A stretch of 44,422 nt of DNA from Kagunavirus 536P11: the sequence record OZ035764.1; one strand, 5' to 3'. Position 1 is the stretch's first letter, and every line of letters begins with the position of its first letter. The position numbers were made by a program, and so were the translations under genes. This document shows, piece by piece, positions 5,045 to 43,224 of this stretch. The notes beneath the pieces are model-generated. The model saw nothing but the letters and a program-made list of their open reading frames with translations, made no database searches and had not been told where the DNA came from.

Positions 5045-5069
5045 AAAAAGCCCCGTTAAGGGGCTTTTT
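5045..5069. terminator. intrinsic terminator (AAAAAGCCCC-GTTAA-GGGGCTTTTT)
   Basis: perfect GC stem flanked by A-run and T-run immediately after stop at 5043. Confidence 0.7.
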
Positions 5070-5133
5070 AGTGCCTGTGATTATTCCAGTTATTCCACTA
5101 AATTGTAAATGTTGGAATAAACTATTCGAATAG

Positions 5134-5162
5134 TTGACTTTTCACTGAAAATATGATAAGCT
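5134..5162 (+). promoter_or_regulatory. sigma70-like promoter TTGACT-17-TGaTAAGCT (extended -10)
   Basis: TTGACT 5134-5139, TG 5154-5155, TAAGCT 5157-5162; same architecture at 37080-37108; palindrome AACTATTCGAATAGTT (5120-5135) overlaps the -35. Confidence 0.5.
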
Positions 5163-5166
5163 CCAC

Positions 5167-5370
5167 CTGAGCTTGTGAAGTATGAACAAGCGACCGCGGC
5201 GCGGGCAGGTAACGGAGCGGGACGTAAGTCCTGAGTGTAGTTACGCTGACGCGTTCGGAAGGGCCATACTCTATTGCTTGTGTAAAAAGTAACTGGTTTA
5301 CTGAGATTACGCCGTTTCTATGTTTAAATGATAAGGACTAGCGCCCCGCTTTATGGCGGGGCTTTACTTA
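5167..5370 (+). ncRNA. candidate structured small RNA, copy A (boundaries approximate)
   Basis: no conserved ORF; blocks CTGAGCTTGTGA, CAAGCGACCGCGG and GAGTGTAGTTaCGCTGaCGCgTTCGGAAGGGCCA shared with 37112-37349; hairpins GCTTGT/ACAAGC and GGGAC-GUAA-GUCCU; ends in GCCCCGC/GCGGGGC hairpin plus T-tract. Confidence 0.4.
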
Positions 5371-5386
5371 TCGAGAAAGGAGAAAC

Positions 5387-7733: not shown

Positions 7734-7758
7734 GAGAGGGACTTCGGTCCCTCTTTTC
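7734..7758 (+). terminator. intrinsic terminator (AGAGGGA-CTTCGG-TCCCTCT-TTTT)
   Basis: GC stem-loop plus T-run right after capsid stop. Confidence 0.7.
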
Positions 7759-14682: not shown

Positions 14683-14789
14683 GTAGTGTGTTAGAATAAT
14701 TTTGCGCCTAGTGTCGCACACGAAAAGCGGGTGGTTCCCGTCTGGCGCATTTCCTTTAACCAGTAACCTCTTAACCAAAGGATTAAAGA

Positions 14790-15206: not shown

Positions 15207-15571
15207 ACGCGCTGTACAGGTTCGCCACCTACGAGTTTGTGGATAAGCATAAAATCAGAGAGTTTGATTCTATAGCTGACGGACACGAACAGGCGCTTAT
15301 CGCGATGGGTGTAATCGATAAGAAAAAACGTGCAGCGCGACGGGGTGGGCCAGAATGCCCGCCCCTTTTTATATCCACCTTTGAGACGTATTGCGACATT
15401 AAGTTTACGCGACACGTGCGCGAGGACGCTGTAGTATTGTTTGCAAGAGAATCCGTTACGTGGCAAGACCTGAAAGCCTATCTCGATGTTACGCAAAAAC
15501 AGCTTAGCCTGTTCGAGATAGACATTATCATGGGCTTAGAAGCAATCTTTGAAGGTAGAAATCATGGCTGA
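15200..15571 (+). CDS. -1 frameshift extension of tail assembly chaperone (T-like)
   Basis: -1 frame open across G stop; GGAAAAG at 15197-15203 two codons before stop; track ORF 15239-15571 is the downstream part. Confidence 0.4.
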   Translation, partial: KVDALYRFATYEFVDKHKIREFDSIADGHEQALIAMGVIDKKKRAARRGGPECPPLFISTFETYCDIKFTRHVREDAVVLFARESVTWQDLKAYLDVTQKQLSLFEIDIIMGLEAIFEGRNHG

Positions 15572-28504: not shown

Positions 28505-30695
28505 AGCGTTTTAACTCCTGCCCTTCCGCTACAAGAGGGAACCCCTCGGCCCACTCAGGCAGAGAACACATTAATTTTTCCAGTTCGGCCACCGTGTACT
28601 CAGGGGTATCTGGGGTTTCACATACCAGTTCATCGTGTACCGAAAGCACGATAGGATACCCGCCACGCTCAACGTTAATCATCGCATATGCCAGTAAATC
28701 ACGGCACAGCGCCTGGACAATGTTTTCACATGCTTTACCGCCGTGGGTGTATAGAGTTGTCCATTGGCGGGTTAACTGGTTTTCGCCCTGATACTTGATT
28801 CGGACATTCGTGTTTACCCGTCCATCTTCGTCTGTTTCCTTTGTCACACTAACGCCGATTCCCGGATACGAGAGGATACGGCCTGACGGCAACTCCATAC
28901 ACAACCACCAGCCAGGAACCTTCCTGCCCGACGAATCAAATTCTACGGTACGCCATATGCGGATAGCCCTTTCACCATTCCGGCGCAAGTGTGCCCCGGC
29001 CCAAAATTCACGACCAGGATTACGAACAGCGGCTAAAATTCCGTCTTTAAGGTCGCGCCAGAACGCTACTGTTTCCGGGTGTGACTCGCGCCACATACGC
29101 TTGATTGCATCACATGTGCGCCACACTTTCTTGTCCAGAATATATGATGGTCGGTCATCCTTTTCACCTGGATGCGGTGGTCGCTTGGCTTCCTGAATAC
29201 GCGCCCACTCATACCCACGTGCGGTAGCAGCCCAGATGTGGTCGGGGAAAGTCCCGTCCATTGTTTTTGCCATCTCAATAAGGTCAAGACCTAAGTTTTT
29301 AGCAAACGTAACGAACGCTCCGACGCCGCCCTCGTAGCCGAGACCCAGTTCGCATGCTTTGCCTATCTGTCTGATTTCCTTAAAGTTTTTCTTAATATCG
29401 TCGGGGTCCATGCCAAACATCTTACCTGCGGTTACACAGTAAATATCCAGTCCGGCACGGAACGTATCGAGCGCGGTTTCTTCTCCTGCTAACCACGCTA
29501 ACCCACGACCTTCGACGTTAGAGTAATCAGCTACGACAAACTTGTGCCCGGCTTCCGGTATGATGCAGCTACGGACCGTCGATGCCGTCAGCTTGGCTAC
29601 GTCAAATCGGCGGTGAGCACGACCCTTAAGTAACGCTGAAATGCCTTTATCCAGTTCATCATCGTGATAGTAACCGCGCGCCAGGTTCTGCGGCTGAAAG
29701 CCTTTACCCGCCCATCGCAGAGTGCGTTTTGCCCCGCCGTACTGCAAGCAACCACGACGGCGGTCGTCAGACGAGCGGCCCAACAGAAGCGGGTTATATT
29801 TCGTGGACGCTGTTGACGCGGCACCGAGGCGCATTTCGATAATCGTCCGGGCGTCGTCCGGTAAATCATCATCTGCCAACAGGTCGTTAAGCGTAGACTT
29901 CTGCGCGTTGTGAATACGGTGCGCAGGCGCAAGTTCACGCAGAATCGGCAGAAAGTCCTTACCCGTAAGCGAGCCTCCGTATTTGCGCTGGGCTTCTTCC
30001 TGTAACTGCGCTTTATGTTTCTCTACGGCATCAATAGCGGCTTCCGCCAGTGCGACGTCAACCTTAAACCCGCGGTCATTAATTAACTGGTCCAGTTCCA
30101 GTACGCGGTCCTCGAACTCGGAGTTACCCCAACGCGGCAGCTTATGGAAGACTTCACGCATCGCAGTGATGTCGCTCACGGCGTACTTGATGAACAGCGC
30201 CCACTCATCAGGGTGTGTTTCGGCGGTGTAGCGTCTGATTTTGTAGTTCTTCGGCGTCGGCTTAGAGAAACGCTGAATCAGCGCCTTGCCGCGTTTATCT
30301 TTCGCATTGTCAGCGGACACGCCCAGCACTTCGCACAACGCATCAAGTGACCCCGGCAGCGCGTGACGAAACGCCCAAATCATTGTATCAATGGTGTTGC
30401 TTACCGGAATATCAAAGTCCCAACAGTGCTTCATGATGAGCCTGTCGAACATTGATCCGTTGTGCCATACCATCTTAATGCGACTGTTTGGCTTAACCAG
30501 GCGGCGTAACGCACGATGCAAATCACCCGGCATGTCGCTGCCGTCGGTGCAATCCCACACCCGCACAGGCTCGTCGTCAAAAGCATAGGTACAGATAAGC
30601 ACTTCGGTTGACGGGTGTTCGGCGTAAGCGTAGGAACCGACTTTCTTTAAATCGGCTTCGGAGAATGTTTCAAAGTCCAGGTATAAGTAGCTCAT
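28494..30695 (-). CDS. DNA polymerase I-like (family A) with 3'-5' exonuclease domain
   Basis: exo motif LDFETF; pol motifs DYSNVEGR, RQIGKACELGLGYEGG, VHDELV; start at M19 (ATG 30695, RBS AAGGA) preferred over track start 30749. Confidence 0.8.
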   Translation of the reverse strand: MSYLYLDFETFSEADLKKVGSYAYAEHPSTEVLICTYAFDDEPVRVWDCTDGSDMPGDLHRALRRLVKPNSRIKMVWHNGSMFDRLIMKHCWDFDIPVSNTIDTMIWAFRHALPGSLDALCEVLGVSADNAKDKRGKALIQRFSKPTPKNYKIRRYTAETHPDEWALFIKYAVSDITAMREVFHKLPRWGNSEFEDRVLELDQLINDRGFKVDVALAEAAIDAVEKHKAQLQEEAQRKYGGSLTGKDFLPILRELAPAHRIHNAQKSTLNDLLADDDLPDDARTIIEMRLGAASTASTKYNPLLLGRSSDDRRRGCLQYGGAKRTLRWAGKGFQPQNLARGYYHDDELDKGISALLKGRAHRRFDVAKLTASTVRSCIIPEAGHKFVVADYSNVEGRGLAWLAGEETALDTFRAGLDIYCVTAGKMFGMDPDDIKKNFKEIRQIGKACELGLGYEGGVGAFVTFAKNLGLDLIEMAKTMDGTFPDHIWAATARGYEWARIQEAKRPPHPGEKDDRPSYILDKKVWRTCDAIKRMWRESHPETVAFWRDLKDGILAAVRNPGREFWAGAHLRRNGERAIRIWRTVEFDSSGRKVPGWWLCMELPSGRILSYPGIGVSVTKETDEDGRVNTNVRIKYQGENQLTRQWTTLYTHGGKACENIVQALCRDLLAYAMINVERGGYPIVLSVHDELVCETPDTPEYTVAELEKLMCSLPEWAEGFPLVAEGQELKRYAK

Positions 30696-33864: not shown

Positions 33865-33893
33865 AATATAATAGCTAACTATTCACATGTCAA
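33865..33893 (-). promoter_or_regulatory. early promoter with operator (minus strand TTGACA-17-TATATT, core AATAG-N4-CTATT)
   Basis: plus strand TATAATAGCTAACTATTCAC at 33867-33886; divergent from 33913-33930. Confidence 0.6.
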
Positions 33894-33912
33894 TGGGCTT
33901 TTCTAAAATAAT

Positions 33913-33930
33913 TAATATGGTACTATTCAC
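33913..33930 (+). promoter_or_regulatory. operator-bearing extended -10 promoter (TGgTACTAT)
   Basis: TAATATGGTACTATTCAC about 30 nt upstream of the XRE-like gene start. Confidence 0.45.
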
Positions 33931-33957
33931 ATATCAACTAACTAAGGAGTAACTGAC

Positions 33958-36516: not shown

Positions 36517-36807
36517 TTATCTTTTGGCCAGACATTCCATCAAATGCGCGTACTTACGGTAATAATCTACGACAATCTCATCGCCGAAATACTGATAAAT
36601 GTACGCTAAGTGGTCAGAGACACCGATGGAGGCCGACATTGTGCTGAGTCTTCGGAGACTAATCAACTGCAATTCTTCTGTAACGCAAAACGGTGAATAA
36701 GAGTCCAGCTTACAAGAAACGTTAAAGCACAACGCGTACTCGCCTTGCGCTAAATAAACCATATAAGCATTGTCGTTCTCTTTATCGTGGAAAATTACAC
36801 CTTTCAT
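36517..36807 (-). CDS. hypothetical protein
   Basis: 96 aa ORF. Confidence 0.4.
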   Translation of the reverse strand: MKGVIFHDKENDNAYMVYLAQGEYALCFNVSCKLDSYSPFCVTEELQLISLRRLSTMSASIGVSDHLAYIYQYFGDEIVVDYYRKYAHLMECLAKR

Positions 36808-36974
36808 TTCACGTTCTCCTTAATCCACGCTTCAACTTTATTACGGTCAAATGTTCCCGGTAAACGGCGGCCCATTACTTTAACGCTGCAATCAGGAAAC
36901 TTTCCACTCTTAATCCAGTTATTAATCGTCTGGCGGGTGACGCCAATTAATTCTGCGACTTCATTGATAGTCAT
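36804..36974 (-). CDS. small HTH DNA-binding protein (AlpA/excisionase-like fold)
   Basis: MTINEVAELIGVTRQTINNWIKSGKFP; RBS AGGAGA; track start 37064 would place the upstream inverted repeat inside the coding region. Confidence 0.55.
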   Translation of the reverse strand: MTINEVAELIGVTRQTINNWIKSGKFPDCSVKVMGRRLPGTFDRNKVEAWIKENVK

Positions 36975-37014
36975 TTCACGCTCTCCTGTGTAAGATGTAT
37001 CGAAGTATAAGGCG

Positions 37015-37054
37015 GTAACTTTGTAAAAGCAACCAAAACCGAACACAAAGTTAC
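37015..37054. promoter_or_regulatory. 10-bp perfect inverted repeat GTAACTTTGT-N20-ACAAAGTTAC (putative operator)
   Basis: upstream of the minus-strand HTH gene and next to the divergent promoter at 37080. Confidence 0.45.
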
Positions 37055-37079
37055 TAAGATACAAAAGATGCTACTGGTA

Positions 37080-37108
37080 TTGACTTTTACTTAAAAATAT
37101 GCTAAGCT
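37080..37108 (+). promoter_or_regulatory. sigma70-like promoter TTGACT-17-TGcTAAGCT (extended -10)
   Basis: same architecture as 5134-5162. Confidence 0.5.
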
Positions 37109-37111
37109 TCA

Positions 37112-37349
37112 CTGAGCTTGTGAGATATCGCAAGCGACCGCGGAGCGGCAGGGAACGCAACGCGTGCCATTAGGCACTTGAGTGTAGTTCCGCTGGCGCT
37201 TTCGGAAGGGCCAAAGTCTATTGTTAATCCCGCCTAAATACCCAAGCCACTGATAATTAAAAGTTTCTATAGTTGCCGCAAGCAAGGTAGAGAGTACTTC
37301 ACTCCGCTGGGGTGGGCTAACGCCCACCCACTGCGTTGCGTACTCTTTT
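37112..37349 (+). ncRNA. candidate structured small RNA, copy B (boundaries approximate)
   Basis: shares three sequence blocks with copy A; hairpins GCTTG/CAAGC and GUGCC-AUUA-GGCAC (compensatory to copy A); terminal hairpin GGTGGGC/GCCCACC; no ORF conserved between copies. Confidence 0.4.
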
Positions 37350-37388
37350 AAGAAACGAAAGAATCACAACGGCATCGTAACTATTCTC

Positions 37389-37421
37389 TTGCACACCCCA
37401 ATATAATAGGATACTATTCAC
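37389..37421 (+). promoter_or_regulatory. early promoter with operator (TTGCAC-17-TACTAT, core AATAG-N4-CTATT)
   Basis: CACCCCAATATAATAGGATACTATTCACTTA, 29/31 identical to the minus-strand promoter at 14651-14682. Confidence 0.6.
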
Positions 37422-37451
37422 TTATCGGAACGAGACAGAGGAGTGAGGGTT

Positions 37452-37643
37452 ATGTTTAAGAAGGGTCAGTTGGCGAAAACGAAACGCGGCGGACAATATG
37501 TATTAGTGATACAGGACGAGAATAAGTATGACGAGGATAATCTTGTCGACGTATGGGGTCTGGTGAGAAAGAAAAACGGGTTCGCCTTTCGCGATAACCT
37601 GGAATTAATCGGCAACAATTTTAAATTCAAAGGGGCGAAGTGA
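37452..37643 (+). CDS. hypothetical small protein
   Basis: ATG 37452 with RBS GGAGTGAGGG; stop overlaps next start (TGATG). Confidence 0.5.
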   Translation: MFKKGQLAKTKRGGQYVLVIQDENKYDEDNLVDVWGLVRKKNGFAFRDNLELIGNNFKFKGAK

Positions 37644-37834
37644 TGGAAGAATTAATTTACGACGTATACGTCGACGGGGTTATCTCAGAGACGACAAGTA
37701 ATAAAGATTACGCAATAAAGTTGTATGTGTATTATGCCGCAGTGTTAGGAAGGATGGTAGAAGTGCGGGAGCGAACGGCATCGAATCATGAGGCGAAGAT
37801 ATACACAACGGCATCGGATAAAGAGGCGAAGTGA
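37643..37834 (+). CDS. hypothetical small protein with C-terminal RTASNHEAK motif
   Basis: coupled TGATG junctions at both ends; contains 22-nt repeat GAACGGCATCGAATCATGAGGC. Confidence 0.5.
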   Translation: MEELIYDVYVDGVISETTSNKDYAIKLYVYYAAVLGRMVEVRERTASNHEAKIYTTASDKEAK

Positions 37835-38037
37835 TGCAAGAATTATTTGAAGAACTGAAACATCATGAACTAGAAGAAGTGCATTTCATAATTGACCATT
37901 ACAAAGTCACTTTATTAGACGGTACAACCATTTCTTCAGGGGCAAGTGACGATTTGTTGAAATTTTTACTTTTACTACGAACGGCATCGAATCATGAGGC
38001 TCGTGCCGACGACTCTGAGGGAGGTTGCCGTGAATAA
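37834..38037 (+). CDS. hypothetical small protein with C-terminal RTASNHEAR motif
   Basis: second copy of the 22-nt repeat at 37979-38000. Confidence 0.5.
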   Translation: MQELFEELKHHELEEVHFIIDHYKVTLLDGTTISSGASDDLLKFLLLLRTASNHEARADDSEGGCRE

Positions 38038-38097
38038 TTACCCGTTCATTTTAATTGTCAGCGCCGTTTATGTGGTGCACGCGTTGTGGGGGTTGGT

Positions 38098-38298
38098 ATG
38101 AGTGTGTGGATTAAGTGTAGCGAGCAGGTTCCGTGCAGCGAGCCTGGCCGATGGTCAAAAGATGTTATCGCGCTAAGTGATACTGGGGATGTGTTTCGTC
38201 TGGCCTGTCAAGGTGAATACTGGCAAAGAACGTCAGCGTTTGTCGAATCCGGTTCCGAAAAAGTGGTTGCATGGGCGCCGTTACCCGAGGAGGACTAA
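38098..38298 (+). CDS. DUF551-like protein
   Basis: MSVWIKCSEQ...AWAPLPE; paralogous to 38449-38640. Confidence 0.55.
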   Translation: MSVWIKCSEQVPCSEPGRWSKDVIALSDTGDVFRLACQGEYWQRTSAFVESGSEKVVAWAPLPEED

Positions 38299-38640: not shown

Positions 38641-38682
38641 TGTTATATTGTAACAATAGTTTGAGATTTTACTGAGTGACTT

Positions 38683-38720
38683 ACGCTGCTACACAGCAGC
38701 GTATCATTTTTCTCATTTTT
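38683..38720 (+). terminator. intrinsic terminator (ACGCTGCT-ACAC-AGCAGCGT then T-rich tract)
   Basis: after DUF551-like gene stop. Confidence 0.6.
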
Positions 38721-38797
38721 GTTCTATTTCACGAAACGCAACAATCGAAGCGACTATTGCAGGAGATGCAACAATACACAACACCAATAAAATTTAC

Positions 38798-38830
38798 TTG
38801 CACACTAGGATAGAATAGGCTACTATTCAT
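38798..38830 (+). promoter_or_regulatory. early promoter with operator (TTGCAC-17-TACTAT, core AATAG-N4-CTATT)
   Basis: TTGCAC 38798-38803, TACTAT 38821-38826. Confidence 0.55.
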
Positions 38831-38857
38831 TTACACAAACGAGGGGGAGAGATAGAG

Positions 38858-42993: not shown

Positions 42994-43224
42994 ATGTTTC
43001 ACGAACTAAAGATATTACCTGAGCATTTTGAACCTGTTATGGCAGGAATCAAGCTGGCGGAACTGCGATTAAACGACCGCGATTTCAAGGAAGACGACAC
43101 TCTGTGCCTGCGAGAATACGAAAACGGTGAATACACAGGCCGTATCGTTTACCGCCGCGTTATTCATGTTGCGGACGTAGGTGCTTACCTGCCTGGATAC
43201 GTGCTATTAAGTATGGAGGATTGA
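42994..43224 (+). CDS. hypothetical protein
   Basis: 76 aa ORF with RBS GTGGGGTGAG. Confidence 0.45.
   Translation: MFHELKILPEHFEPVMAGIKLAELRLNDRDFKEDDTLCLREYENGEYTGRIVYRRVIHVADVGAYLPGYVLLSMED

Follow-up and report, generated by a model that had tools for sequence, protein, structure and literature searches.

A conserved structured RNA at the head of operons in Guernseyvirinae phages, and its second copy in Kagunavirus 536P11

Kagunavirus 536P11 carries two paralogous copies of a structured RNA, here called copies A and B, and both are oriented as the operon immediately downstream. The conserved core, of ~95-110 nt, is an RNA-level feature with a conserved fold, and the leader RNA is a well-supported, previously undescribed structured RNA family of the Guernseyvirinae. 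A promoter-proximal leader module is favoured, and the leader most likely acts on its own transcript, not as a free small RNA, because no canonical terminator closes copy B or the copy A of Jerseyviruses, and because the leader of Otaku, whose homology is not established, enters the ribosome-binding site.

The window, i.e., the whole stretch of 44,422 nt that was analysed (44.4 kb), represents the complete genome of a Kagunavirus, one of the K1G-like virulent siphophages of E. coli in the Guernseyvirinae. The copy B region is 95-99% identical to that of fPoEco01, AV104 and phiEc3/4, and the gene order of fPoEco01 transfers directly to the window. The features are listed below, with the promoters as read from the sequence.

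Terminase, portal, head morphogenesis and decoration protein genes, then copy A, then spanin, scaffold, major capsid and tail genes: plus strand
Replication genes, the last of which encodes a 60-aa HTH_17 protein (HTH gene, 36804-36986): minus strand
Beyond the HTH gene, copy B, then small early genes, then holins and endolysin, then small genes up to the small terminase: plus strand
5081-5087 and 5090-5096: TTATTCC, twice, 5′ of P_A, with the inverted GGAATAA at 5114-5120
5122-5133: perfect palindrome CTATTCGAATAG, adjoining the -35 of P_A
5134-5162, plus strand: predicted promoter P_A, with TTGACT (5134-5139), a 17-nt spacer and TGaTAAGCT (5154-5162)
5169-5280, plus strand: copy A core, with the 5′-terminal hairpin P0 (5171-5191), long hairpin (5194-5258), tail (5257-5265) and UCUAUUG (5270-5276)
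5281-5386, plus strand: 3′ part of the copy A leader, from the scan for terminator-like hairpins
37080-37108, plus strand: predicted promoter P_B, with the -35 TTGACT (37080-37085), a 17-nt spacer and the extended -10 TGcTAAGCT (37100-37108)
37116-37135, plus strand: P0 of copy B, GCUUGUG-AGAUAU-CGCAAGC, from folding
37138-37205, plus strand: long irregular hairpin of copy B, from RNAalifold and pair counts
37204-37212, plus strand: conserved unpaired tail GGAAGGGCC
37217-37223, plus strand: UCUAUUG block
37224-37349, plus strand: variable, AU-rich 3′ part of the copy B leader, with the block GUUUCUAU at 37263-37270
37389-37417, plus strand: early promoter, with TTGCAC (37389-37394), a 17-nt spacer and TACTAT (37412-37417)

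The first-pass annotation had placed copy B between the HTH gene and the early promoter, and this placement stands; the start that it gave for the HTH gene, 36974, is a minor error for 36986. The plus-strand early promoter that it set at 37389 is found there, 3′ of copy B and 5′ of the first early gene (ATG at 37452). The operator-like inverted repeat at 37015-37054 is also present, as GTAACTTTGT (37015-37024) and ACAAAGTTAC (37045-37054), and the HTH/replication operon looks operator-controlled. A plausible minus-strand promoter, TTGCTT-17-TATACT (37032-37004), overlaps this 10-bp inverted repeat, and from its location P_B and the HTH promoter would stand back-to-back.

A palindromic motif, AATAGGATACTATT, lies over the -10 of the early promoter (motif copy at 37389-37424) and recurs at 38797-38833 and, on the minus strand, at 14683-14647; partial matches are seen at 33865-33935. 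The AATAGGATACTATT promoter family corresponds to the "phage promoter" consensus obtained with PHIRE for fBC-Eco01 (PMC9825357). Since these phages encode no RNA polymerase, the TTGCAC-17-TACTAT family more likely represents host-type promoters with a common operator than phage-polymerase promoters. Beside the minus-strand motif at 14683-14647, and just 5′ of the tail-assembly-chaperone ORF (14790), there is a match to the int-alpA RNA (RF02996, Rfam) at 14701-14765 on the plus strand, with 36.6 bits and a gathering score of 35.8.

A BLAST search with positions 37001-37450 against the window identified positions 5134-5276, with 80.4% identity over 148 nt and an E value of 6.6e-25, far beyond chance. 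Copy B consists of the promoter at 37080-37108 and an RNA core at ~37114-37227, and copy A spans 5134-5280. Conservation between the two extends from the -35 through TCTATTG and then falls off, a short GTTTCTAT block being the exception; the copies share no more than the promoter and the 5′ structured domain, and their 3′ domains are unrelated. Thus the BLAST match and the A/B alignment bear out the earlier claim of a second copy that is a true paralogue, promoter included, and the E value together with the covarying fold agrees with the view that this is not a chance repeat. The substitutions in the hairpins had been described as structure-preserving, and this agrees with the stem swaps between the copies and with covariation across the family: the apical hairpin GUGCC/GGCAC of copy B corresponds to GGAC/GUCC in copy A, and GGAAC/GUUCC of copy B to GUAAC/GUUAC of copy A. 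The fold is conserved, which argues against a mere duplication of promoter and leader sequence, the case that the first-pass annotation had named as contrary to its proposal. The copy A core gives 130 bits (E 1e-34) with the covariance model R1. Copy B looks like a late promoter and leader that were duplicated into the early-region slot of some Kagunaviruses, and it looks as if it has been retained under structural constraint since the duplication.

The two copies have the promoter layout TTGACT-17-TGnTAAGCT in common, as had been noted before. P_B is conserved in all B copies and is nearly identical to P_A, and its predicted transcription start is 37114/37115. With a good -35 and an extended -10, both sequences are promoter-like and are treated as predicted promoters; a consensus promoter scan lists neither, because TAAGCT fits TATAAT at only three of six positions. 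P_A is the sole recognisable promoter between a bidirectional terminator at 5045-5069 and the late genes. The TTATTCC/GGAATA repeats upstream of it are kept in Jerseyvirus and in GRNsp27, whose -35 is weak, and are absent from copy B; they look like a putative binding site for a late activator.

The -10 hexamer repeats around the start site (37103-37119; 5157-5174; ~590-610 in L123). Both hexamers vary together by lineage, as TAAGCT...TGAGCT in Kagunavirus and TACGCT...TACGCT in Jerseyvirus, and the second hexamer doubles as the 5′ strand of P0. The repeated hexamer could be a sigma-dependent pause element, or simply the palindrome AAGCTC-N5-GAGCTT.

P0 begins 2-3 nt past the predicted start in both copies and in Jerseyvirus. 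The long hairpin that follows is built from a basal helix (CCG/CGG and GGAGCG/CGCUUU), then CAG/CUG, then GGAAC/GUUCC, with ~20 base pairs stacked around an internal loop. This loop has GCAACGC on its 5′ side and UUGAGUGUA on its 3′ side, and the 3′ strand carries the conserved sequence UGAGUGUAG. The apical sequence differs between types, and in copy B the apical hairpin is GUGCC-AUUA-GGCAC, at 37164-37177. In the family the tail reads CGGAAGGG(C/U)C and is followed by UCUAUUG; its GGAAGG core is invariant, with the exception of GGGAGG in Golestan-type B copies, and the bases after GGAAGG and the UCUAUUG block vary slightly.

In an alignment of 46 distinct Kagunavirus-type cores made with R1, 97% of the cells are paired, compared with 31-45% when the partners are slid. 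Four pairs have changed on both sides (32:91, 42:80, 44:79, 45:78), and one of these takes C:G, U:A and A:U. With Jerseyvirus sequences included, 98% of the cells are paired (24-43% in the slid controls), compensatory double changes are found in 9 of the 20 pairs, and no shuffle reaches the observed covariation score; these figures are for 52 distinct sequences from few lineages, in an alignment fitted to the model. The G:U pairs in the helices make the fold specific to the plus strand. Covarying stems together with conserved unpaired bases would be expected if an RNA offers a surface for binding.

A second pairing is available to the 5′ strand of the basal helix: on its own it can form CCGC-GGA-GCGG (37138-37148; general form CCGC-NNN-GCGG), which excludes the basal helix. 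The alternative hairpin shows a compensatory C:G to U:A change in L015, with a single-step intermediate in L053, and the distant relative GRNsp27 has a stable CGCC-GCAA-GGCG hairpin in the same position. The alternative hairpin may be a folding intermediate or a switch. A hand-drawn three-way-junction fold was rejected: its closing helix draws on bases that P0 already uses, and the covarying column 32:91 supports the long basal helix. K-turn, sarcin-ricin and boxA motifs were compared by eye with the internal loop, and none fits consistently.

All Kagunaviruses and typical Jerseyviruses examined have copy A at the head of the spanin/scaffold/capsid operon, and in the latter it is far more diverged. 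In Jersey, blauehaus, SS3e and Kenya-K2, BLAST matches the Kagunavirus query in the 3′ half only, and R1 gives E values of ~1e-10. Three P0 pairs are swapped on both sides in Jerseyvirus, where this hairpin reads UACGCU-UUC-AGCGUA; CGCG/CGCG forms the middle helix and GGGCG(U/C)...(A/G)CGCCC the apical stem, and the CGGAAGGG tail is retained. Positions 5082-5381 are 90-100% identical to Jerseyvirus LSPA1, compared with ~78% for the flanking genes, and conservation of the whole copy A leader exceeds that of the capsid genes.

Copy B is found in some Kagunaviruses only. Several lack it, and an unrelated non-coding cassette occupies the slot in phages of this kind. A search with R1, filters off, found no second copy in Kagunavirus XY1 or Jerseyvirus LSPA1, and the slot in these two phages holds an unrelated non-coding unit of ~330 nt. 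The unit combines several hairpins with a strong promoter (TTGACA...) and, 5′ of the early promoter, the canonical terminator GGGCAGGC-[UUAG]-GGCCUGCCC-UUUAGUU. This unit may be a different RNA with an equivalent job. Its positions are as follows.

30270-30600, minus strand: slot unit of XY1 (L139)
37810-38120: slot unit of LSPA1 (L045)

The Serratia phage Otaku has a structured leader with the tail CAUUCGGAAAG, which has no 3′ hairpin and leads directly into the ribosome-binding site; its homology to the Guernseyvirinae leader RNA is uncertain, and R1 gives it no score. Pattern scans of IMG/VR and metagenomes returned Guernseyvirinae-like contigs (up to 45 kb) and a few chance matches. As far as the scans reach, the RNA family is confined to the Guernseyvirinae.

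Neither copy was matched by Rfam 15, at gathering score in the whole window or at E values up to 10 in the two copies. The sole weak Rfam hit over copy B was OrzO-P, on the opposite strand, with 17.8 bits and a gathering score of 60. No tRNA or tmRNA was detected in the window. A coding gene was rejected, given that the short ORFs differ between A and B and that indels of 1 nt and 4 nt break every frame. No host homologue was found in 5,426 E. coli genomes. In bacterial genomes a loose pattern scan gave chance hits in GC-rich genomes, none of which was scored by R1 (best E 0.045). The literature that was searched for transcriptomes or non-coding RNAs of Kagunavirus and Jerseyvirus contained no mention of the leader RNA. 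Among 27 early and regulatory ORFs, Pfam recognised no Q- or N-like antiterminator domain; a protein of novel fold may have escaped this search. In the early region, positions 42994-43221 (plus strand) encode a 76-aa protein with matches to DUF3850 (E 2e-18) and to the ASCH domain, whose PUA-like fold is a proposed RNA binder; it is the sole recognisable RNA-binding candidate that the small early genes encode.

The 3′ part of the copy B leader ends in a composite 60-nt stem (37289-37348), which encloses the hairpin GGGUGGGC-UAAC-GCCCACCC (37310-37329). The first-pass annotation had reported this hairpin, as GGGTGGGC-TAAC-GCCCACCC, and had taken it for the end of a discrete small RNA. The hairpin is present, but the end is unsupported: no U tract lies 3′ of it, ACUGCGUUGCG comes next, the U run is consumed by the 3′ strand of the composite stem, and the hairpin sits within this larger stem. 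Judged by its letters, it is not a canonical terminator. In Golestan-type B copies the 3′ part is swapped for a (CUCA)n repeat and a GGUGCC-UUCG-GGCACC hairpin, and these copies have no more than the promoter and the 5′ domain in common with copy B of the window. The (CTCA)n repeat numbers ~7 in Golestan (L044, ~37780-37810) and ~4 in relatives, and one contig has (GTGA)n in its place (loci L044, L009); the region is C-rich and G-poor and resembles a Rho-loading site. In copy B of the window, perfect complementarity of 9 nt links the internal loop (37155-37163, ACGCAACGC) to the sequence just past the 3′ hairpin (37333-37341, GCGTTGCGT). This pairing is present in the minimum-free-energy fold of the full leader and is lost in L046-type copies; it may be due to chance.

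In copy A the hairpin GCCCCGC-UUUAUG-GCGGGGC (5343-5362), followed by UUUACUU, lies 24 nt 5′ of the spanin ATG (5387); across the family, the 3′ hairpin is placed 24-28 nt before the start codon. Its stem covaries, with GCCCUGC/GCAGGGC in L001, GCCCGGC/GCCGGGC in Jersey and GCCCGAC/GUCGGGC in SS3e. UUUACUU follows it in Kagunavirus and only UUAGCGUAU, with no U tract, in Jerseyvirus; in most lineages the 3′ hairpin is without a U tract. Farther downstream, terminator-like hairpins are found at 38682-38703 in the early region and at 7734-7755 after the capsid gene. The latter is a strong plus-strand hairpin directly after the major capsid gene, within the late operon (GAGAGGGACUUCGGUCCCUCUU UUCAUUU). 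Another strong plus-strand hairpin of the late operon, GGGGUGGGCC...GCCCGCCCC UUUUUAU, is located at 15342-15365 in the tail-chaperone frameshift region.

The leading candidate among the explanations, put forward here tentatively, is a leader that acts in cis and modifies the elongating RNA polymerase, like HK022 put and not homologous to it. Copy B would serve as leader to the plus-strand early operon, and copy A to the late spanin/scaffold/capsid/tail operon. At copy B, host sigma-70 RNA polymerase would initiate at 37114/37115. The first ~90 nt would fold during synthesis into the 5′ hairpin and the long hairpin with its conserved unpaired nucleotides, and the nascent RNA would stay on its polymerase, near the RNA exit channel. 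The bound RNA would make the polymerase resist pausing and termination, so that polymerases from P_A and P_B could pass the GC-rich hairpin that closes the leader, as well as terminators farther along the operon (38682-38703, 7734-7755). We infer the cis action, the contact with polymerase and the suppression of termination. Points in favour are the position at the start of the transcript, the same direction as the operon, the downstream hairpins and terminators that need read-through, the presence of two paralogues on two operons, the lack of a recognised protein antiterminator and strong selection on the whole leader. On the other hand, a second promoter lies 3′ of copy B, which makes P_B dispensable for the early genes; copy B is missing from LSPA1 and several Kagunaviruses; and there is no sequence or covariance-model likeness to HK022 put, from which the architecture also differs. 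Antitermination without a factor would cost the late operon its temporal control, which the repeats 5′ of P_A might supply.

The leader may instead depend on a factor, as an attenuator, riboswitch or protein operator does. A phage or host protein, or a small ligand, would bind the core and select between CCGC-NNN-GCGG and the basal helix, and would in this way govern either read-through at the 3′ hairpin or how the first gene is translated. This explanation is somewhat unlikely. The two mutually exclusive pairings both have covariation support, the loop sequences are conserved, GRNsp27 has its hairpin at the equivalent place, the covarying 3′ hairpin stands shortly before the start codon, and the repeat motifs 5′ of P_A suggest regulation. 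However, no antiterminator pairing that joins the core to the 3′ hairpin was found to be conserved, the complementarity of 37155-37163 with 37333-37341 does not survive in L046-type copies, A and B have unrelated 3′ domains, and the Pfam search of the 27 ORFs identified no RNA-binding regulator.

An element for mRNA stability or processing is doubtful to a similar degree. The 5′-terminal hairpin of the ompA leader guards its transcript against 5′-end-dependent RNase E, and RNase III sites are known in T7 early RNA and in the lambda N leader; by analogy P0 would block 5′-end-dependent RNase E and the long hairpin would be an RNase III site. In all lineages P0 lies no more than 2-3 nt from the predicted 5′ end, despite wholly different sequence; this is consistent with the explanation, as are the ~20 stacked base pairs around the internal loop and the location at the head of long operons. 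However, such an element needs no invariant unpaired sequence, and UGAGUGUAG, CGGAAGGG and UCUAUUG are kept between paralogues that otherwise differ; nor does it need 90-100% conservation over the whole 300-nt copy A region.

A stand-alone small RNA that acts in trans is unlikely. Here P_A and P_B would yield abundant RNAs of ~200-235 nt, which bind a phage or host protein or base-pair with targets. The promoter-like sequences are strong, the whole copy A transcript is highly conserved, the scan for terminators lists the Kagunavirus copy A hairpin with its UUUACUU, and the canonical terminator of the XY1/LSPA1 unit implies that the slot can host a discrete RNA. Against this, no U tract follows the hairpin in copy B or in Jerseyvirus copy A, the Otaku leader (homology not established) is without a 3′ hairpin, and A and B share the 5′ structured domain only, with no long single-stranded seed conserved. 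A DNA-level element (replication origin, packaging site or protein operator) with an incidental fold is very improbable: copy B does lie beside the primase-helicase operon, and a palindrome, AAGCT(C/T)-N4-5-GAGCTT, spans the -10 and +1 to +8 with CTAT(T) half-sites nearby, but the stems covary, G:U pairs in the helices are A-C mismatches on the other strand, Jerseyviruses hold only the copy distant from the replication genes, and conservation covers the transcribed part, not the promoter alone.

The Guernseyvirinae (K1G-like, Jersey-like) are among the commonest isolates for therapy and biocontrol of E. coli K1 and Salmonella, and hundreds of their genomes have been deposited. In the records examined the ~300-nt region is unannotated or holds spurious "hypothetical protein" calls, yet it is among the best-conserved stretches compared. 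The leader RNA marks the start of the late operon and, in some phages, of the early operon too. It offers a handle on the passage of host polymerase through terminator-studded operons in phages with no recognised antiterminator and no RNA polymerase of their own. If the cis-acting leader RNA acts directly on polymerase, it would enlarge a class essentially known from HK022 put, and could provide a compact read-through module for engineering. Even as merely an mRNA stabiliser or processing element, it would be a well-supported new RNA family suited to Rfam.

Several known systems resemble the leader RNA in part. As a phage-borne conserved non-coding motif it is of the same kind as Rfam families such as int-alpA, and no model matches it. 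Hfq-type small RNAs have a U-tailed intrinsic terminator, which is lacking in copy B; UUUACUU occurs in Kagunavirus copy A only. The A/B pair can be likened to the lambda nut sites with N, which are RNA sites that open two operons and act on the elongating polymerase. The pair differs from nut in having no conserved boxA (GCGCUUUCGG in copy B, ACGCGUUCGG in copy A, CGCAUUCGG in Jersey) and no 15-nt boxB hairpin, and no N-like protein is recognised.

The layout of lambda PR′-6S RNA-tR′ with Q, and of P. aeruginosa AlpA, is also seen here: a constitutive-looking promoter stands before a ~200-nt non-coding leader, a terminator-like hairpin and the lysis and structural genes (PMC9371919). Q systems (lambda, 82, 21, AlpA) have a -10-like pause element in the first transcribed nucleotides, beside a binding site within the promoter; the hexamer that recurs around +1, TAAGCT/TGAGCT here and an exact TACGCT repeat in Jerseyvirus, may be comparable to it. 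However, Q systems act via DNA sites and a sigma-dependent pause and need no conserved RNA fold, and the Kagunavirus hexamer TGAGCT (at ~-1 to +5) has G at position 2, without the critical A. The eight-helix P. aeruginosa AlpA forms a ring at its N terminus and carries a helix-turn-helix at its C terminus (PMC9371919); the HTH_17 protein was considered as an AlpA-type antiterminator and rejected, being with 60 aa too small for a Q/AlpA "nozzle".

The put RNAs of HK022 are factor-independent processive antiterminators: they take up their fold in the nascent transcript, attach to the beta′ zinc-binding domain, and suppress pausing and render the polymerase resistant to terminators (PMC9378689). 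Like the leader RNA, putL and putR are paralogous structured RNAs just past a sigma-70 promoter, each at the head of a phage operon, and putL starts at +3 (PMC9378689), which compares with ~+3 of P_B (37116) and of P_A (5171) for the leader copies. Covarying stems, conserved bulges or loops and downstream terminators are common to both. A put RNA has ~70 nt in two stems of ~35 nt, with a V shape and an RNA triplex, whereas the leader RNA has ~95 nt in a short 5′ hairpin, a long hairpin and a purine-rich tail. The put sites serve two early operons of a temperate lambdoid phage, and one copy of the leader RNA stands on the late operon of a virulent siphophage. The sequence and structure of put (~70 nt, two stems, conserved residues such as the A9-G35 platform and U28) are not matched by the leader RNA. 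The sequence of putL was recovered from HK022 via published primers, and R1, filters off, found nothing in the immunity region that contains it. Homology was rejected for want of likeness in sequence, size or model score, the CAGG..GAACG.CAA resemblance being in a different structural context, and the likeness to put is one of layout only. On a rather speculative reading, the leader RNA would be a second and independently evolved family of factor-independent, RNA-only processive antiterminators, which while nascent would bind the RNA polymerase of E. coli or Salmonella and take it past terminators. A large group of virulent siphophages would employ it on the late operon, and some of them would have duplicated it for the early operon.
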